From: Promethearchaeota archaeon | Lineage (GTDB): Archaea > Asgardarchaeota > Lokiarchaeia > Sigyniarchaeales > SOKP01 | Direction of reading: 5' to 3' | Assembly (NCBI GenBank): GCA_048941285.1 | Contig: JBHLNS010000067.1 | Coordinates: forward strand, 1 to 14,748 | DNA: 14,748 nucleotides | Shown here: positions 1,877 through 13,048 of the stretch, in pieces | Numbering within the stretch: the stretch's first letter is position 1 | Layout: each line of letters opens with the position of its first letter | Made by a program: the position numbers and the translations under genes | Notes under the pieces: generated by a model | Database searches by the model: none | What the model was told of the DNA's origin: nothing | The model's input: the letters and a program-made list of their open reading frames with translations, nothing else

Positions 1877-4800
1877 ATGAAATATAAAAACCTCACAATA
1901 AAGAATTTAATATCTAAAAGAGAGAAATTAACATTTCTGGTGGGTGCAGATTGCTCTATGGATGCCCCCTCAAGTCTTCCAAATAAACGGGTAATGATGG
2001 AAGCTATCATTAATTATTTTTGTGCGGAATCTGAAAGAGAAAAAATTTCGAGTATAAAAAATCTAAAATTGGAGCAATTGCTAGAAATAATTCCTCAAAG
2101 TTTTGATGAAAAACTTAAAATTTTAGACTATTTTGGATTGTGTGATAAACCTAATCTACAGCATTTCTTTTTGGCAGATTTAATAAAGAAAGGAAATTTT
2201 TTAATGACAACAAATTTTGATTCTTTAATAGAATATGCTCTCCTTAAATCAGAAGTTCCCCATGAAAAAATAATCCCTATAATTACTAAAGATGATTTTG
2301 AGGAATATAATAATCCAGTTCAATTATTAAAGAAGGGTTTTAAAACAGTATATAAGATCTATGGAAGTCCCAGAAATATTATTTCCGGGAAAGATACAAG
2401 AGATTCAATAATGGCAACTATTAAAGCTTTTGGTTTAAATAATGAGAGTAAGAATATCTTGCACATAGAACCTTTTAAACGCAAAGTTTTCGACAACCTC
2501 TCAAATGAATGCTCTTTAATTGTAATGGGTTATTCAGAAAGTAATGATTCTAACATAATAAATATAATAAAAGTATTAAGAAATGTTCAAAAAATTATTT
2601 GGATAAACCATTCAGAATCAATTCAAACTGATAAGGAAAAGATTTATGAGATTAACTCGGGCGAAATTCAGTCATTAAATAATTTAAATAAAAATCTAAA
2701 AGAAATTGTTGAGAGATTATATGAGATCAGACGAATGGGTATTGCTAATAAAATTTATCTTGTTGATATAAACACGAAAAACATGGTTAAAGAATTATTA
2801 CAATTTAAACCAAAATTAAGCTCAAAGAATTTTACAATGAGCCCAATGAAATGGCTCGAGAACAATTTCGACCAGCCAAAAATGACTATAAAATTTTTAA
2901 TATCTGCTTTAACATATTATAATTTTCGCATGTATAAAGATGCAATGAGATGCGCTAGATTGGTTCTGCGATTTCTCACATTTGAAGATATAAAATTCTG
3001 GAAATCTTTTGCGCAAAATGCAATTGCAAAAAGTTTTCGCTACCAACAAGACAATCTAGGAAATCTAAAACAGAAGAATAAATTAGATGAGAATGATACA
3101 CAAGTTGAAAATTTATCAATAAAAGCTATCACTCTTAGCACCATTGGTAGAATTCATCAAGCTCAACAAAGATATCCTGAAGCATTAAAAAATCTTGAAG
3201 ACTCCTTAATTATCGAAGAAAAATTAGGAAATTTGAGAAGGAAGGTATTATGTCTTAATGACATTGCCAATATATATCAAATACATGGTAATTATCTTGA
3301 AGCTTTTAAAAGAATTAAAGAGGCTTTAAGAATTAATGAACAGCTGAAAGATGCAAGGGGGAAGGCTTCTAATCTTAAAAAGATTGGGGATATTTATACA
3401 ATAAGGGGTGAATATCCTAAAGCTCTAAAGTGTTATTTGAGTGGATTAAAGATTAATAGACAATTGAGAGATTTAAATGGAAAAGCCATATTTCTAAATA
3501 ATATTGCAAAAATTTTAAACATACAAGGAAATTATCCTAAAGCTTTGAAATGCATTATAAATACTTTAAAGCTTTATAAGCATTTGGGAGATTTAAATGG
3601 TAAAATTACAGCTCTTAGCGATATAGCATCAATTAAATATGATCAAGGGAAATTTCTCGAAGCATTGGATTATTATAACGAAATATTAGAAATTTATGAA
3701 CAATTAGGAAATTTGAATATGAAAGCTATATGTCTTAATAACATTGCATCAGTTAACCTAGCTCAAAAGAGATATCCAGAGGCATTGAAGCATTTTTATG
3801 AAGAGTTGGAGATCTATGAACACTTGGAAGATTTAAACCAGAAAGCAAGATGCCTTAATAATATTGCTTCTATTCATTTTATTGAAACAAATTATATAGA
3901 AGCATTGAAGCATTACAAACAAGCATTAGAAATTTATGACCAATTAGATGATATGGAAAAAAAAGCTATATGTCTTAATAATGTTGGTGACGTATTTCAA
4001 ATACAAGGAAACTATCTAGAGTCATTATTAAATTATAATCTAGCAATAGGGATTTATGAGCAATTAGGAGATTTAACTGGAAAAGCTACATGCCTTAAGG
4101 ATATCGGTTTAATCAAATATAATCAAAAAAACAATCCAGAAGCATTGAGATATTATATTGAAGCACTAGAGATCTATGCACACTTAGGAGATTTAAAGCA
4201 GAAAGCTACATGTCTTAATAATATAGCATCTATCCATGTTACTAATAGAAATTATACAGAAGCAATGAAGTATTATAATGAAGCGCTAGAGATCTATGAT
4301 CATTCAGATGACTTAAACCAGAAAGCTGCGTGTCTTAATAGCATTGCATCTATTCATGTAACTGAAACAAACTATGCTGAAGCACTGAAGTATTATAATG
4401 AAGCGCTAGATATTTATGAACACTTAGGGAATTTAAATTTGAAAGCCATATGTCTCGTTGATATAGGAGATGTCTTTCAATTACAAGAAGAATATGTAAA
4501 GTCATTGACAAGTTATAATTTAGCACTAAATATTTATGAACAATTAGGAAATTTAAAAATGGAAGCTATGTGTCTCACTAATATCGCTTTAATCAAATAT
4601 AATCAAGAAGGTTATACAGAAGCGTTGAAACATTATAATAAAGCACTAGAAATCTATGAAAAATTAGGAAATTTAAGCTTGAAAGCTACATGTCTTAATA
4701 ACATTGCATCTGTTCACTTTACTGAAGTAAATTATGCAGAAGCATTGAAATATTATAACAAAGCATTAGAAATTTATGAACAATTAGACGATCTGGAAAA

Positions 4801-5767
4801 AAAAGCTATATGTCTTAATAATGTAGGTGATGTTTTTAAATCTCAAAAAAATTATCCTGAGGCTTTAAAACAATATTATATGGCATTAGAAGCATATGAA
4901 CAATTGAAAGAAGCGAGCAGTCAAGCTATTTGCCTTATAAATATCGCAATAATTAATTATGATCAAAAAAATTATCGAGAAGCGTTAATTTTCTTTAATA
5001 TTGCTTTAAAAATTGTTCAACAATTGGGAGATTTTAAGATGATGGCTTTGTGTCTCAATAACATCGCTTCAGTTTATTTTGTCCAATTAAAGTATCCAGA
5101 AGCATTAATGCATTACATAAATGCATTAGAAATTTATGAAAGGTTAGAAGATTTGAGTGGAAAAGCTACTTGTCTTAGTAATATCGCTTTAATTAATTTT
5201 AATAACATAGACTACCCAGAAGCGTTAAAACCTTACAAAGAAGTACTTTCAATTTATAAAAATCAAACTATCAATGATCTCCCAAAATTAAGAACCATAA
5301 AAAAAAAAATTGAATCTTTTCCCTATCCGTCAACCCAAAAAAATTATATTAACAATTGGGAAATACTTAAAAAAAAAATATTCAATCAACTTGATTCAAG
5401 TAAATCTATCTTTTCAACCGTTTCTAGAAAAAAGATCAGAACTCAAATGGATTCTGTTGATATGATAATGAAAAAACTCAAACAAAAGGATTTTACCCAA
5501 CTCGGAACTATTTATAAAGCTCAGGGAAATTTTGAAAAGGCTTTGATACAATATGAAGAAGCATTAAAGATTGCTAAACAATTAGGAGATTTGAAGAATA
5601 AATTAGAAATTCTTCATAACATCGGAGATATTTATACGATTAAAGGGAAATACAGGGAGGCATTAAAACAATACGAAGAAGCATTAACAATTGCCGCACA
5701 ATTGGATAATATCTCTATAAAAATGGTATTTCTTAATAAAATTCGACATATATATAAACAGCTTTAA
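1877..5767 (+). CDS. SIR2-like (SIR2_2) domain plus long 40-aa TPR array protein; SIR2 motifs degenerate
   Basis: 1296 aa. The N-terminal ~300 aa has sirtuin-like motifs FLVGADCS, PNLQHFFLA, MTTNFD, YKIYGS and VMGYSES. These are followed by 18 contiguous 40-aa repeats (KAxCLNNIAxIxxxQxNYPEALKYYxEALEIYEQLGDL), a linker, and about 2 more repeats at the C-terminus. Confidence 0.9.
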   Translation: MKYKNLTIKNLISKREKLTFLVGADCSMDAPSSLPNKRVMMEAIINYFCAESEREKISSIKNLKLEQLLEIIPQSFDEKLKILDYFGLCDKPNLQHFFLADLIKKGNFLMTTNFDSLIEYALLKSEVPHEKIIPIITKDDFEEYNNPVQLLKKGFKTVYKIYGSPRNIISGKDTRDSIMATIKAFGLNNESKNILHIEPFKRKVFDNLSNECSLIVMGYSESNDSNIINIIKVLRNVQKIIWINHSESIQTDKEKIYEINSGEIQSLNNLNKNLKEIVERLYEIRRMGIANKIYLVDINTKNMVKELLQFKPKLSSKNFTMSPMKWLENNFDQPKMTIKFLISALTYYNFRMYKDAMRCARLVLRFLTFEDIKFWKSFAQNAIAKSFRYQQDNLGNLKQKNKLDENDTQVENLSIKAITLSTIGRIHQAQQRYPEALKNLEDSLIIEEKLGNLRRKVLCLNDIANIYQIHGNYLEAFKRIKEALRINEQLKDARGKASNLKKIGDIYTIRGEYPKALKCYLSGLKINRQLRDLNGKAIFLNNIAKILNIQGNYPKALKCIINTLKLYKHLGDLNGKITALSDIASIKYDQGKFLEALDYYNEILEIYEQLGNLNMKAICLNNIASVNLAQKRYPEALKHFYEELEIYEHLEDLNQKARCLNNIASIHFIETNYIEALKHYKQALEIYDQLDDMEKKAICLNNVGDVFQIQGNYLESLLNYNLAIGIYEQLGDLTGKATCLKDIGLIKYNQKNNPEALRYYIEALEIYAHLGDLKQKATCLNNIASIHVTNRNYTEAMKYYNEALEIYDHSDDLNQKAACLNSIASIHVTETNYAEALKYYNEALDIYEHLGNLNLKAICLVDIGDVFQLQEEYVKSLTSYNLALNIYEQLGNLKMEAMCLTNIALIKYNQEGYTEALKHYNKALEIYEKLGNLSLKATCLNNIASVHFTEVNYAEALKYYNKALEIYEQLDDLEKKAICLNNVGDVFKSQKNYPEALKQYYMALEAYEQLKEASSQAICLINIAIINYDQKNYREALIFFNIALKIVQQLGDFKMMALCLNNIASVYFVQLKYPEALMHYINALEIYERLEDLSGKATCLSNIALINFNNIDYPEALKPYKEVLSIYKNQTINDLPKLRTIKKKIESFPYPSTQKNYINNWEILKKKIFNQLDSSKSIFSTVSRKKIRTQMDSVDMIMKKLKQKDFTQLGTIYKAQGNFEKALIQYEEALKIAKQLGDLKNKLEILHNIGDIYTIKGKYREALKQYEEALTIAAQLDNISIKMVFLNKIRHIYKQL
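3119..5278 (+). repeat. Intragenic tandem array of 18 x 120-nt TPR-coding units
   Basis: Exact 120-nt periodicity. For example, aaagctatatgtcttaata recurs at 3722, 3962 and 4802, and 3901-3990 closely matches 4741-4830. Confidence 0.9.
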
Positions 5768-5970: not shown

Positions 5971-6495
5971 TTAATATAATTCACTTTTACGTATTTGATC
6001 TTTTGTTTGAACTTCGATGTCTTTTTCATCAAGTTTCTTATGATTTATTAAGGTATCCTTAATAGCTTTTATTTCTGCTCTTGTTTTAAGATCTATATTT
6101 GTCTTTAAATGCTCTAAAATCTCTTTTTCTTTGAGACCTTTATTATAAAGTCGCTTGAATTTATCAATTGTCTCACTATTATAAAAAATATATCTATTAT
6201 TCAAAAACACAACTAAACCACCTCTATTTTTTTGGTGATTGTGAAGTTTAGAAAGTGTTTTTCTAATTTTTTCAATTTTGCAATTTAAATCTTTGGCAAG
6301 ATCGTTATCTACTATTCGATTGTGCTTTTGCATAATTCTGATGAGTTTCTTTTTAAAAGTTAGAGAAAAAATATAAATCAATGTAGCTACCGCAAGAAGT
6401 AAAAGAGTAAGCCCGATTGCTAATAATCTATAAAAGAAAAAAATTACAAATATAGATCCTATTAAAAAAATCCATAAAATAGAATTTCTCTTCAT
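5971..6495 (-). CDS. Membrane-anchored protein: two N-terminal TM helices plus tandem winged-helix/HTH-like domains
   Basis: 174 aa. Residues ~5-46 are hydrophobic. They are followed by a helix-strand-helix-helix-hairpin pattern (KKLIRIMQKH/RIV/DNDLAKDL/KIEKIRKTLSKL/GLVVFLNNRYIFY) and a second three-helix unit. The ATG is 2 nt after the upstream stop. Confidence 0.7.
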   Translation of the reverse strand: MKRNSILWIFLIGSIFVIFFFYRLLAIGLTLLLLAVATLIYIFSLTFKKKLIRIMQKHNRIVDNDLAKDLNCKIEKIRKTLSKLHNHQKNRGGLVVFLNNRYIFYNSETIDKFKRLYNKGLKEKEILEHLKTNIDLKTRAEIKAIKDTLINHKKLDEKDIEVQTKDQIRKSELY

Positions 6496-6497
6496 TT

Positions 6498-8183
6498 TTA
6501 CTTTTTACTAATTCTTTCCAATTTTTCTATCTCAAATTCTATTAAATTTAATTTAGTATTATATTTCTCAAAAAGTTCTGTATAACTATTGATATCGATA
6601 TCATTGTTATCATATAAACTTTTCAATTCTTTGATTGTTCTTCCCAACGCTGTTTTTTGGCTTAATAATTCTTCCTTCTTTTTTTGGGGATTTGGTTTAT
6701 CTAAGTATTTTAATTTATATTTTCTATATATTTCGACATTCACATCGATTGGTTTCATATTTGATAAATATAATGTTGTTCTAGGTAATTTTTCTGCTAG
6801 ATTTTCAGGCACAGTAATATAAGGTTCTGGATTTTCAATATGCTGAAGAACATTATAAGGCAAAACTTCGACATCAATTTCCATGATATTATCATTAACA
6901 ACCGATAAATTAAACAGGATATTTCCTTTCTCTTTTTCTGTGAGATCTTTAAATTTTTTCAACATTTGTTCCCAAGTTTCTTCTGCTTTTGAAAAGTAAT
7001 AAACAGCTTTTTTTAATAGATCTTCAATCAACCGTTTTTGAATATGTTGATCCGAAGATTCAGAGATTTCCATTTTTTGAAATGCTTGAGCTTTTAAATA
7101 ACATGCTTTTCCCATATCAAAATCAGCTTGAGCATTTAACTGTTTATTTATTTTTTCATTATCAAATCCTAAATAAAATAATCTCCTTGATAATAAACTT
7201 ACTCCAGCATACAATTTAGAAGCCAGAATTAAGTTGTCTTGTCTTTCTTCCTTAATCGCAGCAAGACCCTGAGCAAAAATTCTGCATTGTTCAGCTTCAA
7301 ATTCCAAATTTTTTGGTTCTAAACTCTTACCTATCTTATTTTGATTAACTGCGGCTGCGCTAAAGTATGTTGCTGTCTTATACATCTTACAACATTTAAC
7401 CATTGAGATTATAGCATTTTCCCAATCTTCTGTTTTTTCAAAAATTTTCGAGAGTTGATTATATATTCGGGCTAAGACCCAAGAAACTCGAGCGCATTCA
7501 AACATAATATCGTAAATATTAATTTCCTTATTATCGGCAGGATCATAATATGACCTAGTAATATCTAGTTCCTCTATGATCAGATTTTGATTCTTGGACA
7601 AATAATTAATATTTAGTATATCTATATATTCAAATATGAGATCTAAATCATCATAAGGAATATCACTATTCTTATCAAGAATTTCTTCCAAATTTTTTAT
7701 TTTAAAGTGTAAAAATCTAATTCGTTGTGCGATTTCTTCAGTAAAAAAATCTTTAATATAACCAATAACCACTTTATCTTCTGCTTTTGCGGTTGTTTTT
7801 TCCTTTTTCAAAGGTTTTTTCTTCTGAGTGCTTTTTTTAGATATCTCTTGTTTTTTAAGTTTTGGCTTATCAGATGTTTTCTCCAATTTGATTTCCTTGC
7901 CTTTTCCCTTTTTTTGAGAGATCTCCGATTCAAGTTTATGAGTTTTTTCAGAAACTTCACTAATACTTTCTATTTTATCAATATTCTCATCCTCTTTTTT
8001 ATTAAGAAAATCAATTGCTTCTTGAATGTAATTTACAGCCATCATTACAGTAAATCCTTTGATCTTTACCAAATCTTTAACATTACTAGACGCCAGTTTC
8101 TCAATTGTATCTATTCCAGCTTTCTTTAAAAGATCAACATTTTCTTTATTTATATCACTAAACTTTTCTAATTTAAACTCCAT
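6498..8183 (-). CDS. HhH (RadA/Rad51 N-terminal-like) + Lys-rich linker + Bro1/ALIX-like domain + steadiness-box-like C-terminal hairpin
   Basis: 561 aa. aa ~4-60 contain LLKKAGIDTIEKLASSNVKDLVKIKGF (HhH). aa ~145-460 have Bro1-like motifs in the right order: YYDP..DIMFECARVSWVLARIYNQLS, SLEPKNL..FAQ, LASKLYAGVS, GKACYLKAQ and NDNIMEIDVEVLP..IENPEP. aa ~503-556 contain ALGRTIKELKSLYDNNDIDINSY. The ORF is clear, while the Bro1 and SB calls are by-eye inference. Confidence 0.65.
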   Translation of the reverse strand: MEFKLEKFSDINKENVDLLKKAGIDTIEKLASSNVKDLVKIKGFTVMMAVNYIQEAIDFLNKKEDENIDKIESISEVSEKTHKLESEISQKKGKGKEIKLEKTSDKPKLKKQEISKKSTQKKKPLKKEKTTAKAEDKVVIGYIKDFFTEEIAQRIRFLHFKIKNLEEILDKNSDIPYDDLDLIFEYIDILNINYLSKNQNLIIEELDITRSYYDPADNKEINIYDIMFECARVSWVLARIYNQLSKIFEKTEDWENAIISMVKCCKMYKTATYFSAAAVNQNKIGKSLEPKNLEFEAEQCRIFAQGLAAIKEERQDNLILASKLYAGVSLLSRRLFYLGFDNEKINKQLNAQADFDMGKACYLKAQAFQKMEISESSDQHIQKRLIEDLLKKAVYYFSKAEETWEQMLKKFKDLTEKEKGNILFNLSVVNDNIMEIDVEVLPYNVLQHIENPEPYITVPENLAEKLPRTTLYLSNMKPIDVNVEIYRKYKLKYLDKPNPQKKKEELLSQKTALGRTIKELKSLYDNNDIDINSYTELFEKYNTKLNLIEFEIEKLERISKK

Positions 8184-8743: not shown

Positions 8744-11700
8744 ATGGTGGTCTTAATTTTATTTAGAAAAAAAACTTTAAAAACGGGTTTTATATTAATA
8801 ATTATTTTATTTATATCTATATTTAATTTATATTTTGTGACCTATCTAGATTCATTTTTAACACAAAATTACACAAACTCAATACCGAATACATTTCCTA
8901 TAAAAGGTGATATAAGTGAAGAAACTGAAAGAGACTTGCAAACCAATATTATTACTTGGAGTGAATTATTGAATAATAACCCATATCTCCTTAATTTGAA
9001 TAATATAATTTCCTATTCCGAAAGTGCTTTGGTTAAAGTTCGAGAAGATGAAAAAATTGAGTTTATAGTAAAAAAAGATTCTATGGAATTCTCTTCTCAG
9101 GCTCGAGAATTGCTTTCAGAATATAATGTTGAATTTTTTGAAGAAATTTCAGGGTTTAATGCAAATATTGTTTATATTTCACTAAGTATTCTTGATGAAT
9201 TCATAAATAAAGCTAAATCTACCCCAGGAATCGCATATATTGAACCTAACTTTTATATAGAACTTGATTTTGTACCTAATGATGAATATTATGCAAGTGA
9301 TTTATGGGCTCTACCATTAATTGGTATGGAATCAGCTTGGGATCATGAATTAGGATCGCATGATATAGTTGTTGCAGTTGTTGACACTGGAATTGACTAT
9401 ACACATCCTGACTTGAGTGAAAATTATGTCTCCTTGGGTTATGACTGGGTTAATGACGATAATGATCCGAAGGATGATCATTACCATGGAACTCATTGCG
9501 CAGGTACAATTGCAGCCGTTATTAATAATGAAATTGGAGTTACAGGATTGGCTAATGTTTCTATTTTTGCTGAAAAAGCGTTTAATGCTATTGGATCTGG
9601 TTCGCACGAATCAACTTCATCAGCGATAAGGCATGCGGTGGATATGGGAGCAGATATAATTAGTTGTAGTTGGGGTGGTACTTCTTATTCTGAGCTTTTA
9701 TATGATGCTATTAAATATGCAGTAGAAAATGGTGTACTGGTAATTGCCGCTGCAGGGAATAGTGATTCTGATGATTTGCACTATCCTGCAGCTTATCCAG
9801 AAGTAATAGCAGTAAGTGCTACTGATCAAAATGATGATAAAGCAACTTTTTCGAATTTTGGTGATTGGGTTGATATTTCAGCGCCGGGAGTTGATATTAT
9901 GTCTACTGTACCATATTATACTAGAGGGACTTATTATATGCTCGCATCGGGTACATCTATGGCTACGCCTCATGTATCTGGTTTTGCAGCTTTACTCAAG
10001 AGCGCATATCCAACTAAAAGCGCAATTGAGATTGAAGCTTTAATTTATGATAGTGCTTTAGATTTAGGTGATATTGGTTTTGATCCCGTTTTTGGGAACG
10101 GGAGAATTGATGGAACTACCATCTTTGGACCTGATAACGCTCCACCATCATTTTCAAATTTAATTGAGAGTGCAGACCCCATAGAATTGGGTAATACAGA
10201 AGTTATTTCGATTGATGTAATTGATCCTTCAGGAGTTAACCAAGTTATAATCGAATTTGAAGGGTCTAATCATTCAATGGTAAATATTGGAGGAATCACA
10301 TGGCAATACGACGCTTGGATACCATTAAGTATTGGCAATTATACCTATACGATTTATATGGGAGATAACAATAATAATTGGGGTTCTGTTAGTGGTTCTA
10401 TTAGAGTTGTAGAAAAAGGATCTGATATAACACCCCCAACATATTCAAATTTAATAGAAAGTGCTGATCCCTTAAAATTAGGCAAAACAGAAGTTATCTC
10501 GATTGATGTTACTGATCAATCAGGAGTTAATAAGGTTAACATCGAATTTGAAGGATTAACTCATTCGATGATAAACATTGGAGGTGATACCTGGCAATAC
10601 GACTCTTGGACACCTTCCAGTCCAGGTACTTATACCTACACAATTTATATGGAAGATAATTACGAAAATTTGGCTTCAGTTAGCGGTTCCATTAGTGTAA
10701 TTGATGGAAGTTCGGATACAACTCCACCAACTCTAGTGAAGTTAACTGAAAGTGCAGATCCCTTAGAACTAGGGAATAAAGAGTTGATTTTTGCGGACGT
10801 TATAGACGATTCGGGAGTTAACCAAGTGTTAATTGAATTTGAAGGATCCAACCATTCGATGAGAAGAATTGGTGGTAATGTATGGTTGTATGACTCTTGG
10901 ATTCCCTCAAGCATTGGAATATATCCATATACAATCCATATGGAGGATATTTTTAACAATTGGGGTTCAGTTAGCGATTCAATTGAAGTAATTGAGGGTG
11001 ATTCTGACACCACACCCCCAACATACTCAAATCTAATAGAAAGTGCAGATCCCTTAGAATTGGGTAATACTGAAGTAATCTCAATCGATGTTACTGATCC
11101 TTCAGGTATTAACCAAGTTAGAATCGAATTTGAAGAATCTGTTTATTCAATGACGAATATTGGGGGTGATACTTGGCAATATAACTCGTGGACCCCCTCA
11201 AGTATAGGCATATATCCCTATACAATTTCTATGGAGGATAATAATAACAATTGGGGTTTCGTTAGTGACTCAATCCAAGTTATTGAAGGTGGTTCTGACA
11301 TTACACCACCAACATATTCAAATTTAATAGAAAATGCAGATCCCTTAGAATTGGGTAATACTGAAATAATTTTAATTGATGTTACTGATCCTTCAGGCAT
11401 TAACCAAGTTTTAATTAAAATTGAAGGATTAACTCATTCGATGATAAACATTGGAGGTGATACCTGGCAATACAACTCTTGGATACCTTCAAATACTGGT
11501 TTATTCCCATATACAATATATATGGAAGATAATAATAATAATTGGAATTATGTCAGTGATTCAATTCAAGTACTTGATACTAATCCACCCACATGCATAA
11601 TTCTAACTAATAATACAACACCATTGGAATTAGGGAATTCTAAACTAATCATGGTAAAAGCACGAGATATTTCTGGTATTAATCAAGTTTTAATCGAATA

Positions 11701-13048
11701 TGAAGGATTAACCGACTATTTGACTAATTTAGGTGGAGATGTTTGGCAATATAAGGACTTTTTTCCATCAAATATAGGAAATTGTATTTACACCATAAAA
11801 ATAGAGGATAATAACAATAATTGGAATTCAACTAGCGCTTCTATCGAAGTTAGGGATACAATAGCACCAAATGCTCCTTTATTAATTGATTATCCATGGG
11901 GAGAAGTAAAAGGAAAAATTATCTTTAACTGGGAAGACGGTATTGACCCTTCAGGGATATTGTATTATAGATTGATTATTGATAACGAATCAAATCCTTT
12001 AATTACTCCTGGGAATATATTTGAAATTGAAATTGAAAATTTAGGGTCTGAAAGTAGTTATTTTGAGTTAGAGGAACCTCTAGCATTAGGTACTTATTAC
12101 TTTTTCCTATATCAAACCGATGGATCAGGTCATGAAAGTCCTTCTACAACAGGAACTTTTACAGTAGTATCATTTTCTAATGTAAATAAGGACCAATTTT
12201 CTGCAATAAAATTTTTATGGTGGGTACTCGCTATAGGCGCCGTTTTATCGGTTCCTAGCATTAGCATTGTCGCTATTAAAAGAATAAAGAATGGAAAATC
12301 TAAATTTAATATGGATAATTTTGAAATAAAAAATTTAAAAGGGGAGCTTAAGGATCTCGTTAATAGAAAGAAACAATTACAAAAAGCTGCAGAAACTTCT
12401 ATTAGATACGGTAATTATACTAAAGCTGCGGAATTATATAAAACATGTGAGGATATATCTAACGAAATTTTTAAAAACGGTAATATTACTGAAGCAGAAA
12501 AAACTAAATACTATGCAAATATGAGACACAAAGCTTTTCAAGCTATAGAGCGTAAGGATTCATTTGTTAATTTCCAGATTAACGAATTTTTAACGAAATA
12601 TTTTGATAATATAGGAATAAAGTATTACAGTTATCCTCAAATATATAATAATGGTCAAAGAGCACTTAATGGTTGGATTTTAAATCATACTAAATTCTTA
12701 CAACATCGATTATCAAATCCAAAAAATGGATTAGAATTAGTTCGAGAATTAGGCATTAATCCAGGAATCATATCTCATATAACAGCAATTCAGTTTGTAT
12801 TCACAAATAATTTATCATATGATTCCATTATAGATATTTGCATGAGTCATCAAGGTCAAAATATATTTATGTTCATAATGGGAACGAAATGGCCTTCAAC
12901 ATTCCATAACCACCGTTCTTTTATGCCACCTGAAAACGTAGAAACAATAAATAGAGAAAATATTAGAATAATTAACTATAGTTTACTTGCTGATTTTATT
13001 GGTCTAGAAAATAAAAATAAAAAGTTATTCTTACAAAATTTCTTTTAA
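8744..13048 (+). CDS. Membrane-anchored S8 (thermitase-like) serine protease with Ig-like repeat stalk and a large cytoplasmic C-terminal region
   Basis: 1434 aa. It has an N-terminal signal/TM segment and an I9-like propeptide ending YIEPNF. The catalytic residues are intact: D214 (VVDTG), H248 (HGTHCAG), oxyanion N339 (AAAGN) and S405 (GTSMATPHV). Next come six DxTPP-initiated beta-rich repeats, an FN3/Ig-like unit, a TM helix (FLWWVLAIGAVLSVPSISIVAI, 12212-12277) followed by KRIK, and a 256-aa tail. Confidence 0.92.
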   Translation: MVVLILFRKKTLKTGFILIIILFISIFNLYFVTYLDSFLTQNYTNSIPNTFPIKGDISEETERDLQTNIITWSELLNNNPYLLNLNNIISYSESALVKVREDEKIEFIVKKDSMEFSSQARELLSEYNVEFFEEISGFNANIVYISLSILDEFINKAKSTPGIAYIEPNFYIELDFVPNDEYYASDLWALPLIGMESAWDHELGSHDIVVAVVDTGIDYTHPDLSENYVSLGYDWVNDDNDPKDDHYHGTHCAGTIAAVINNEIGVTGLANVSIFAEKAFNAIGSGSHESTSSAIRHAVDMGADIISCSWGGTSYSELLYDAIKYAVENGVLVIAAAGNSDSDDLHYPAAYPEVIAVSATDQNDDKATFSNFGDWVDISAPGVDIMSTVPYYTRGTYYMLASGTSMATPHVSGFAALLKSAYPTKSAIEIEALIYDSALDLGDIGFDPVFGNGRIDGTTIFGPDNAPPSFSNLIESADPIELGNTEVISIDVIDPSGVNQVIIEFEGSNHSMVNIGGITWQYDAWIPLSIGNYTYTIYMGDNNNNWGSVSGSIRVVEKGSDITPPTYSNLIESADPLKLGKTEVISIDVTDQSGVNKVNIEFEGLTHSMINIGGDTWQYDSWTPSSPGTYTYTIYMEDNYENLASVSGSISVIDGSSDTTPPTLVKLTESADPLELGNKELIFADVIDDSGVNQVLIEFEGSNHSMRRIGGNVWLYDSWIPSSIGIYPYTIHMEDIFNNWGSVSDSIEVIEGDSDTTPPTYSNLIESADPLELGNTEVISIDVTDPSGINQVRIEFEESVYSMTNIGGDTWQYNSWTPSSIGIYPYTISMEDNNNNWGFVSDSIQVIEGGSDITPPTYSNLIENADPLELGNTEIILIDVTDPSGINQVLIKIEGLTHSMINIGGDTWQYNSWIPSNTGLFPYTIYMEDNNNNWNYVSDSIQVLDTNPPTCIILTNNTTPLELGNSKLIMVKARDISGINQVLIEYEGLTDYLTNLGGDVWQYKDFFPSNIGNCIYTIKIEDNNNNWNSTSASIEVRDTIAPNAPLLIDYPWGEVKGKIIFNWEDGIDPSGILYYRLIIDNESNPLITPGNIFEIEIENLGSESSYFELEEPLALGTYYFFLYQTDGSGHESPSTTGTFTVVSFSNVNKDQFSAIKFLWWVLAIGAVLSVPSISIVAIKRIKNGKSKFNMDNFEIKNLKGELKDLVNRKKQLQKAAETSIRYGNYTKAAELYKTCEDISNEIFKNGNITEAEKTKYYANMRHKAFQAIERKDSFVNFQINEFLTKYFDNIGIKYYSYPQIYNNGQRALNGWILNHTKFLQHRLSNPKNGLELVRELGINPGIISHITAIQFVFTNNLSYDSIIDICMSHQGQNIFMFIMGTKWPSTFHNHRSFMPPENVETINRENIRIINYSLLADFIGLENKNKKLFLQNFF
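10133..11854 (+). repeat. Six tandem Ig-like domain repeats (4 x 291 nt, then 2 x 279 nt)
   Basis: Units start at 10133, 10424, 10715, 11006, 11297 and 11576. Consensus: DxTPPTYSNLIESADPLELGNTEVISIDVTDPSGxNQVxIEFEG.xHSMxNIGGDTWQYxSWxPSSIGxYxYTIYMEDNNNNW. Confidence 0.92.

Follow-up and report, generated by a model that had tools for sequence, protein, structure and literature searches.

The 561-residue protein encoded at 6498..8183 of the window (the whole 14,748-nt stretch of DNA that was analysed, from an Asgard (Loki-type) archaeon) joins a Bro1-fold domain to a steadiness-box (SB) hairpin in a single chain. It is probably an HhH-headed accessory paralogue within an Asgard-specific adaptor family, whose members have a Bro1-fold core, a conserved strap and an SB of the ESCRT-I type. 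This reading builds on the predicted fold, on a hairpin homologous to SBs, on the presence of paralogues and on the pairing with a downstream gene; its mechanism is a proposal. In the literature searched we found no description of a Bro1 fold and an SB hairpin in one protein, in agreement with an earlier sequence-only reading that knew of no characterised protein with this architecture.

The interval holds exactly one ORF, which lies on the minus strand, with its ATG at 8183 and its stop codon at 6498..6500; the plus strand of the same interval is stop-rich. The sequence-only reading left the strand unstated. Five parts follow one another from the N terminus, all on the minus strand. An (HhH)2-type head, in part degenerate here, was located by profile matches (7998..8183, aa 1-62). 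A Lys/Glu-rich linker, presumably disordered, was recognised by composition (7767..7997, aa 63-139; 24 K and 12 E among 77 residues), and its length differs widely between relatives, whose whole proteins range from 530 to 760 aa. The Bro1-fold helical domain, with ~11 helices and one beta-hairpin, was delimited by AlphaFold2 and Foldseek (6843..7766, aa 140-447). It is followed by an extended conserved strap, seen in alignment A1 (6738..6842, aa 448-482), and by a short helix with the SB-like helical hairpin, placed by the model and by hhalign (6501..6737, aa 483-561). The strap carries the strongest linear motif of the family, IENPEPYITVPENLAEKLP, and its P, E, P, I, P, E, N, L, A and P columns are invariant in alignment A1; in the AlphaFold2 model it has no secondary structure, and pLDDT drops from ~75 to <50. 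The same motif reappears in other Asgard families, within distantly related Bro1-like proteins.

Profile matches, composition and the AlphaFold2 model agree that the four-part anatomy proposed from sequence alone (HhH, K/E linker, helical domain and C-terminal hairpin) is real. The strings quoted in that proposal all lie where it placed them, starting at residues 228 (FECARVSWVLARIYNQLS), 287 (SLEPKNLEFEAEQCRIFAQ), 320 (LASKLYAGVS), 358 (GKACYLKA), 430 (NDNIMEI), 438 (VEVLP) and 449 (IENPEP). Its architecture withstood every test run, and its overall interpretation is partly supported.

Bro1 domains fold as long TPR-like helical solenoids of ~350-380 aa that carry a small beta element near the N terminus. 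The AlphaFold2 model of aa 140-561 (pLDDT 83.5, pTM 0.72) has an all-helical domain at aa ~149-446 with a beta-hairpin at aa 211-222 within it. Foldseek found 21 matches in the PDB at E<=0.001, and the best 19 of the 21 are all Bro1 domains, from four eukaryotic proteins: ALIX/PDCD6IP (2oew, 3c3o, 2oev), yeast Bro1 (1zb1), HD-PTP/PTPN23 (3rau, 5crv, 5mk0) and BROX (3r9m, 3zxp, 3um3). Their E-values run from 3.9e-6 to 4e-4 over 320-367 aligned columns; the best match is 1zb1, and the BROX match has TMq 0.51 and TMt 0.56. The next class, designed repeats, comes ~100-fold worse (E 5.3e-3), and TMq is 0.37-0.52 for the Bro1 matches versus 0.15-0.25 for generic repeats. The Bro1 TM-scores are moderate in themselves (0.37-0.56, rmsd 6-9 A), and structure-based identity to the Bro1 chains is only 11-15%. 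Because Foldseek returns Bro1 domains, the middle domain is not the generic TPR/SNAP solenoid that the sequence-only reading had named as the outcome that would count against it.

Pfam BRO1 (PF03097) has no match in the window protein at E<=1 and none across its whole genome at E<=10; among 21 aligned family members, two match at E<=1 and 19 do not. The gathering score of 35.1 bits is reached by no family member, the best being a distant relative (P0148) at 33.3 bits (E 3.2e-8) over a 174-residue match. This relative is retrieved by the family profile at E 9e-36 and has a precomputed PF03097 label on record; its register pairs window-protein aa 154-327 with BRO1 positions 33-208. Helical repeats often align out of register. 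The BRO1 matches of two further proteins, P0176 and L164 (E 1.5e-3 and 4.9e-4), were dropped as support because they lie ~70 residues off the P0148 register, so they add nothing. Sequence and profile searches of the PDB with P0001, A1, A2 and P0148 found no Bro1 chains, only a designed TPR protein and chance matches; queries with P0148 and P0176 retrieved no more than 2 and 7 proteins, all archaeal, with no eukaryotic bridge. In the ESM Atlas the neighbours are eukaryotic BRO1 clusters (score 0.86), and the cluster that holds the protein itself bears the automatic name 'putative BRO1 domain-containing protein'. Judged from the predicted structure, the middle domain is a divergent yet genuine Bro1 fold.

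At the C terminus the model places two antiparallel helices (aa 499-525 and 531-560, pLDDT 81-88) that form a hairpin of ~60 residues, which had been proposed to be SB-like. An hhalign comparison of a hairpin alignment broadened with divergent relatives (A7) with independently gathered Asgard SBs (A6, in which 18 of 25 members match Pfam Vps23_core) gave 94.3% (E 1e-7), while the narrow hairpin alignment (A5) gave only 35.7% (E 3.9e-4) with A6. Comparison of A7 with A8, a set partly chosen by the family profile, gave 97.4% (E 1.4e-11), and helical controls gave 0.3% and 0.9%. By BLASTP the hairpin is 32% identical over 63 aa to an SB from its own genome (E 0.001). None of 25 family hairpins, that of the window protein included, matches Vps23_core (PF09454) at E<=1, and in searches of the own genome the hairpin and SB profiles have no mutual matches at E<=1. 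In other Asgard classes the family profile also matches UEV-Vps23-type proteins at their SBs; one such protein scores 32.1 bits with Vps23_core, over the cut-off. At the level of profiles, then, the hairpin is homologous to the steadiness box, as these comparisons with the broadened alignment and the cross-matches of the family profile bear out.

The HhH pair proposed for the head holds as a module of the family and is sub-threshold in the window copy. Here Pfam HHH_5 (PF14520) matches aa 5-45 at E 3e-5 with 24.8 bits, below the 27-bit cut-off; the NCBIfam NusA C-terminal repeat matches aa 11-59 with 29.4 bits, below 48.15, and there are weak NCBIfam matches to the RadA/Rad51 N-terminal region. 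The HhH signal as a whole spans aa 5-59. Against PDB sequences the head finds the RNAP alpha CTD, the Rad51 N-terminal domain and HhH-bearing eL32 (E 0.02-1.7). In paralogues HHH_5 is clear, with 36 bits in the 655-aa paralogue of the same genome and 47.8 and 50.7 bits in others, and many relatives carry precomputed PF14520 labels. Read from the sequence, the hairpins of the window copy deviate from the G-I-G / G-V-G (G-hydrophobic-G) pattern of the paralogues. Across the family HhH heads are the variable addition, with one or two per protein.

Relatives at E<=1e-3 number 379, and of the 134 genomes in the GTDB family to which the window belongs, 127 contain a match; the gene is therefore conserved well beyond chance. 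In a sister family belonging to the window's order, 0 of 14 genomes have the domain, so any role it has is not universal to that order. Three paralogues are present in the own genome, a fact that the sequence-only reading overlooked. The 410-aa paralogue is near-universal, and among the matches listed frames of 472-604 aa (near the length of the window copy) occur almost all in the window's own genus. The window copy shares 70-93% identity with its orthologues across the core. Two other Asgard families carry this Bro1-like domain joined to a JAB/MPN deubiquitinase-type domain (hhalign 96.3%), and fusions to a Zn ribbon occur as well. An in-frame TAA flagged in one genus proved to be the natural stop codon rather than recoding. 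One 197-nt metatranscriptome contig, for which DNA carry-over is possible, maps to 6780-6976; the same run has no RNA cover elsewhere on the stretch.

A partner gene of 174 aa lies directly downstream on the minus strand (5971..6495), starting 2 nt past the stop of the 561-aa ORF. The sequence-only reading had also missed this conserved membrane winged-helix partner of the HhH-bearing copies. It is found directly downstream of 6/6 window-type copies, 4/8 long HhH copies and 1/71 stand-alone copies; the gap after HhH copies runs from -31 to +131 nt, and the frames often overlap or nearly abut. The partner has two N-terminal hydrophobic helices followed by a winged-helix/helical domain (model pLDDT 77). 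In Foldseek its best matches come from SelB and UFL1/DDRGK1, through their tandem winged helices (E 5.5e-3 to 2.6e-2), and no PDB match stands at <=1e-3; searches of the PDB and the ESM Atlas gave a generic tandem winged-helix likeness and no named family. Winged helices are common among nucleic-acid binders. At the loci examined no ESCRT genes adjoin the window gene or its paralogues, and the stand-alone form is located in a housekeeping block. Its JAB/MPN neighbour (c10) and membrane-protein neighbour (c3) were rejected as kin of the family or of the partner (hhalign 0.1% and 0.2%). The own genome encodes Vps4, ESCRT-IIIA, ESCRT-IIIB and Vps28, together with an SB protein; besides the window protein, the SB proteins of this genome are a Vps28-like protein and a Zn-ribbon/coiled-coil/SB protein.

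In the mechanism that we propose, the SB hairpin would plug the protein into SB assemblies with the Vps28-like and Zn-ribbon/coiled-coil/SB proteins of its genome. By analogy with ALIX and Bro1, the Bro1-fold domain may serve as a docking surface for ESCRT-III. The two-transmembrane winged-helix protein, putatively co-transcribed, would anchor the HhH-bearing versions at the membrane, and the head, on its long flexible linker, might reach out to nucleic acid or to another protein. The cellular process and all of these binding partners are conjectural. A complex prediction that paired the core domain (A1) with the last 77 residues of the own-genome ESCRT-IIIB (A3), run without controls, scored 0.00 (mark 0.32), a value that speaks neither for nor against binding.

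The fold and hairpin could be genuine and the protein still not recruit ESCRT-III. With its membrane partner it might instead work at the membrane, tethering or organising nucleic acid, be it chromosome, plasmid or RNA, or it might scaffold enzymes of the ubiquitin pathway. The variable HhH heads, a partner that is a membrane-anchored winged-helix protein, a location outside any ESCRT neighbourhood and the fusions of the Bro1-like domain to JAB/MPN and Zn ribbons speak for this account. To our knowledge, however, all Bro1 domains characterised so far engage subunits of ESCRT-III. The account is also opposed by the SB hairpin, an element particular to ESCRT-I assembly, by the full complement of ESCRT proteins in the genome and by the degenerate HhH of the window copy. 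We think it rather unlikely.

Two further explanations make less of the protein. Its middle domain could be a generic TPR-like solenoid that has converged on Bro1, with an ordinary coiled-coil as hairpin, making it an unrelated scaffold. Weak TPR_8 and MIT matches, a designed TPR protein as the sole PDB profile match, TM-scores of ~0.5 at 11-15% identity and an ambiguous BRO1 register in the weak matches all point that way. The structural matches do not: the best 19 of 21 significant ones are all Bro1, with generic repeats 100-fold behind. The near-threshold 174-residue Pfam BRO1 match lies in a clear relative, P0148, the ESM neighbours are BRO1 families, and the hairpin reaches 94-97% with SB profiles, against 0.3-0.9% for the helical control; convergence seems improbable. 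The window copy could also be a redundant accessory duplicate drifting towards loss of function, with the near-universal 410-aa paralogue doing the real work. The presence of three paralogues, the near-restriction of frames of 472-604 aa to the own genus among the matches listed and an HhH score under that of the other paralogues favour this view. Its frame of 561 aa is intact, however, its orthologues keep 70-93% identity over the core, partner pairing is kept in 6/6 cases, and one metatranscriptome contig lies on the gene, which is weak evidence. We give drift very little credence. Alongside the adaptor reading, which we prefer, stands a bolder one: Bro1 and the ESCRT-I SB might have begun as one Asgard polypeptide, the eukaryotic ALIX and ESCRT-I routes to ESCRT-III might descend from a single ancestral adaptor, and the HhH paralogues with their membrane winged-helix partner might couple DNA (chromosomal or mobile) to ESCRT-III scission, in division or in DNA-carrying vesicles. 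Taken together we regard this as doubtful.

Bro1/ALIX is a main adaptor of eukaryotic ESCRT-III. Its presence in Asgard archaea is unsettled in print: in one survey Bro1/ALIX orthologues are described as not identifiable in Asgard (PMC10936438), and the main text of another paper announces Asgard Bro1 homologues without detail (PMC10307638). The present analysis supplies a concrete and widespread Bro1-fold family, with defined proteins in which binding to ESCRT-III and to DNA, and assembly through the SB, can be examined. It suggests that adaptor modules that are separate in eukaryotes were differently combined in their archaeal relatives, which bears on the origin of the eukaryotic membrane-remodelling system.

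The ~310-aa helical domain has its fold in common with the eukaryotic Bro1 proteins. Unlike them, the window protein is archaeal, lacks a V domain, proline-rich region, PDZ and phosphatase, and has an HhH head before and an SB hairpin after the Bro1 fold. With the ESCRT-I SB proteins (Vps23/TSG101, Vps28 and Vps37) it has in common the ~60-aa C-terminal hairpin, in which alignments show the same Gly/Asn-x-Ile turn with an aromatic residue after it; in contrast to those proteins it has no UEV domain, coiled-coil stalk or Vps28 C-terminal domain. The fungal PalC/Rim23-type proteins, stand-alone divergent Bro1-like proteins of ~400-460 aa that act in eukaryotic pH signalling, are ESM Atlas neighbours at 0.84, a score to be taken as a lead. 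An Asgard Zn-ribbon/coiled-coil/PH/SB family is named in PMC10936438.

CdvA, the archaeal ESCRT-III recruiter of Thermoproteota, resembles the adaptor mechanism proposed here and has been reported to bind membrane and DNA. CdvA has no Bro1 fold, the window protein has neither the PRC-barrel nor the E3B peptide of CdvA, and the similarity is weak. PMC10936438 likens the helical hairpin of CdvA to the SB. Pfam CdvA is matched by 2/25 family hairpins, at E 0.0023 or weaker.

A minus-strand ORF of 561 aa fills positions 6498..8183 of the window (ATG at 8183, stop at 6498-6500), which is AT-rich (23-36% G+C); the plus strand across the same interval is interrupted by many stops. Each peptide string quoted in the sequence-only reading was located in this protein at the residue assigned to it. 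The N-terminal head is an HhH-type module (aa 5-45; Pfam HHH_5, E 3e-5, 24.8 bits, cut-off 27), which in NCBIfam matches the NusA C-terminal repeat and, weakly, the RadA/Rad51 N-terminal domain, and among PDB sequences the RNAP alpha CTD, the Rad51 N-terminal domain and the HhH-bearing eL32. A linker of 77 residues (24 Lys, 12 Glu) leads to a helical domain (aa ~149-446), followed in the AlphaFold2 model by a conserved extended segment, the strap (aa 448-482), and a helical hairpin (aa 499-560). The order HhH, Bro1-like domain and hairpin of steadiness box (SB) type, proposed earlier from sequence, is borne out by Foldseek, hhalign and the HhH matches, and we consider this overall architecture very probable.

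The middle domain has, as modelled, a Bro1 fold. AlphaFold2, given aa 140-561 and an alignment of 23 sequences, reached a mean pLDDT of 83.5 (pTM 0.72), and Foldseek of the model against PDB gave 21 matches at E<=0.001. All 19 listed are Bro1 domains, from yeast Bro1 (1zb1, 3.9e-6), HD-PTP, ALIX (3c3o, 2oew, 2oev) and BROX (TMq 0.49-0.52, TMt 0.55-0.56), aligned over 320-391 columns at 11-15% identity; the other two are further chains of listed entries. The next class, designed helical repeats, begins at E 5.3e-3 with TMq 0.15-0.25. Since the significant matches are Bro1 domains, the region at aa 140-465 did not turn out to be a generic TPR/SNAP solenoid lacking any Bro1 match, the result that the sequence-only reading had named as telling against it.

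Sequence support for the Bro1 identity is thinner than structural support. Pfam BRO1 has no match in the window protein and none at E<=10 across the whole source genome, and is matched at E<=1 by only two of the 21 aligned family members; sequence and profile searches of PDB found no Bro1 chain. The link is made by P0148, a distant relative (family-profile E 9e-36) that matches PF03097 over 174 residues (E 3.2e-8, 33.3 bits, cut-off 35.1 bits) and also carries a precomputed PF03097 label. Carried over through family alignment A2, this match places window aa 154-327 at BRO1 profile positions 33-208, a register that we take, judging from ALIX numbering, to be that of the collinear motif pairs noted earlier. 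BRO1 matches of P0176, another distant relative (1.5e-3), and of L164 (4.9e-4) were discounted, lying ~70 residues, roughly one helical repeat, off the P0148 register. A protein-language-model search agrees with the Bro1 assignment: the protein's own cluster is auto-named 'putative BRO1 domain-containing protein' (score 0.97), and after it come eukaryotic BRO1 clusters at 0.86, sharing 186-187 features, and proteins of PalC type at 0.84.

The C-terminal hairpin is assigned, by profile comparison, to the SB type (Pfam Vps23_core). The source genome encodes a 663-aa protein (contig C1, L133:6935-8926, plus strand), two genes from ESCRT-IIIB, with an N-terminal Zn ribbon, coiled coil, a long low-complexity stretch rich in Asn, Gln and Pro, and, at the C-terminus, a hairpin with a sub-threshold Vps23_core match. 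Genes of this type are kept beside ESCRT-IIIB in many genomes of the window's family, and by architecture the protein would correspond to the 'Znr_CC_PH_SB' family named in PMC10936438. The two hairpins share 32% identity over 63 aa in BLASTP (E 0.001). Among 25 aligned SBs of the 663-aa type, 18 match Vps23_core, and in hhalign this alignment was matched by A7 (hairpins plus divergent family members) at 94.3% (E 1e-7, 64 columns) and by a narrow hairpin alignment at 35.7% (E 3.9e-4); helical controls gave 0.3% and 0.9%. Against a set that also held UEV-Vps23-type SBs, A7 reached 97.4% (E 1.4e-11), a partly circular value, as the family profile had itself selected five of the 20 rows. Independently of this comparison, the hairpin part of that profile matches SBs from other Asgard classes; among them are two Zn-ribbon/SB proteins and two Vps23-type proteins with a UEV domain, one of which has Vps23_core above the cut-off (32.1 bits). 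None of 25 family hairpins matches Vps23_core at E<=1, two of the 25 match CdvA weakly, and the hairpin and SB profiles do not cross-match in the source genome at E<=1.

With aa 140-561 as query, 379 proteins were found at E<=1e-3 (8000 candidates scored). Among the 120 listed, all named relatives are Asgard MAG proteins, labelled Promethearchaeota, Lokiarchaeota/-ia or, by submitters, Thor-, Hermod- or Hodarchaeota, and annotated as 'hypothetical' or 'helix-hairpin-helix domain-containing'. They have two architectures, the core alone (~410 aa) and HhH, linker and core (530-760 aa). When 1.84 billion cluster representatives were searched exhaustively with the profile, just 62 matched at E<=1e-3, many of them fragments, so the family is narrow. 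It was matched in 143 of 400 genomes of the phylum: 127 of 134 in the window's own GTDB family, and 5/5 in a family belonging to a different class, where four match at E 1e-69 to 1e-75 and the fifth at 4.7e-4. Two further families of the window's order had no match (0/1 and 0/14, 15 genomes together), and matches in the remainder were weak and scattered. The source genome (3.55 Mb, 94% complete) holds three paralogues: a stand-alone form of 409 aa, the window copy of 561 aa, which has a single HhH module, and a form of 655 aa carrying two such modules.

The Bro1-like domain recurs in other fusions. It follows JAB/MPN in ~590-aa proteins of two further Asgard families within the same class (L166, L172; in L166, JAB at aa 16-129 and the Bro1-like domain at aa 279-535), with Pfam JAB at 55-57 bits and an hhalign match of 96.3% (E 1.7e-9) to the window family. 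In another family, from a different class, it precedes a Cys4 Zn ribbon in proteins of ~371-374 aa (L167, L168, L171; hhalign 97.4%, E 1.2e-11). Both fusions retain some form of the 'PEP...P' strap motif, 'DPQPLMVHPDP' in the Zn-ribbon proteins. Through the JAB fusion the domain is linked to ubiquitin handling, which fits a role in the ESCRT pathway without proving it.

Gene context was compared for 85 family genes from 80 public loci, two loci of the source genome and the window. Pairing of HhH-bearing copies with a membrane winged-helix gene, c19 (158-174 aa), is conserved: c19 directly follows all six window-type copies on the same strand, and four of eight long HhH copies. One further long copy lies upstream of a tandem paralogue that c19 follows, one just downstream of a c19 gene that follows the neighbouring paralogue, and the last two are at contig ends; only 1/71 stand-alone copies has c19. 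Gaps between the genes run from -31 to +131 nt (2 nt in the window). The partner is modelled (pLDDT 77) with two hydrophobic N-terminal helices, a winged helix and three further helices; no PDB structure matched it at E<=1e-3, the best being the SelB and UFL1/DDRGK1 tandem winged helices (E 5.5e-3 to 2.6e-2). On two public Promethearchaeota contigs (L009, L016), two paralogues of HhH-Bro1-like type stand in tandem or flank the partner gene, with DnaJ and DnaK genes immediately downstream on the opposite strand. Unrelated genes that form a conserved block surround the stand-alone paralogue; they encode an acyltransferase, ATP-grasp, NifU-like and JAB/MPN proteins, a hydrolase, PRPP synthetase and a kinase-like ATPase. 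No ESCRT gene adjoins the paralogues in the loci examined.

Elsewhere the source genome encodes Vps4 adjoining a CHMP2/1-like ESCRT-III, a Vps20/32/60-like ESCRT-IIIB (PDB 9fn1_U, 2.5e-100) and Vps28 domains. An ESCRT-adaptor role for the window protein is moderately favoured: its hairpin may join SB assemblies, its Bro1 fold may dock ESCRT-III, the partner would anchor HhH versions at the membrane, and the HhH head could contact nucleic acid or a protein. ALIX-like binding of ESCRT-IIIB is a tentative prediction with the balance against it, and predicted DNA binding by the degenerate head of the window copy is similarly doubtful. Two motifs are conserved in ESCRT-IIIB tails (L098-L127), 'MPxxPxDDLQYIPE' and, at the terminus, an amphipathic helix 'SKEKLxxEIEKLRKEL'; both are candidate sites at which partners of MIT or Bro1 type could dock.

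Published accounts of Bro1 in Asgard archaea differ: PMC10936438 describes Bro1/ALIX orthologues as not identifiable, and the main text of PMC10307638 reports Asgard Bro1 homologues among ESCRT-III regulators, without detail. The available portions of PMC9192718 and PMC13037920 mention Bro1 solely as a eukaryotic component. The literature searched, whose supplementary tables may list the family, gave no description of an HhH-Bro1-SB protein; we regard the window protein as a real finding.

Three further genes noted in the window lie on the plus strand. Positions 2-511 encode the C-terminal part of a protein with three tandem rubredoxin-like Cys4 zinc ribbons (RUBY_RBDX, three stretches). The 1296-aa protein at 1877-5767, with an N-terminal SIR2-like domain (PF13289) and a very long TPR array (TPR_12, 421 bits), resembles a sensor of STAND or defence-like type; its synteny is limited to the closest relatives. 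At 8744-13048 lies a 1434-aa subtilase (Peptidase_S8) with ~7 near-identical Ig-like repeats of ~95 aa, a transmembrane helix and, on the cytoplasmic side, a tail of ~270 aa without a family match.
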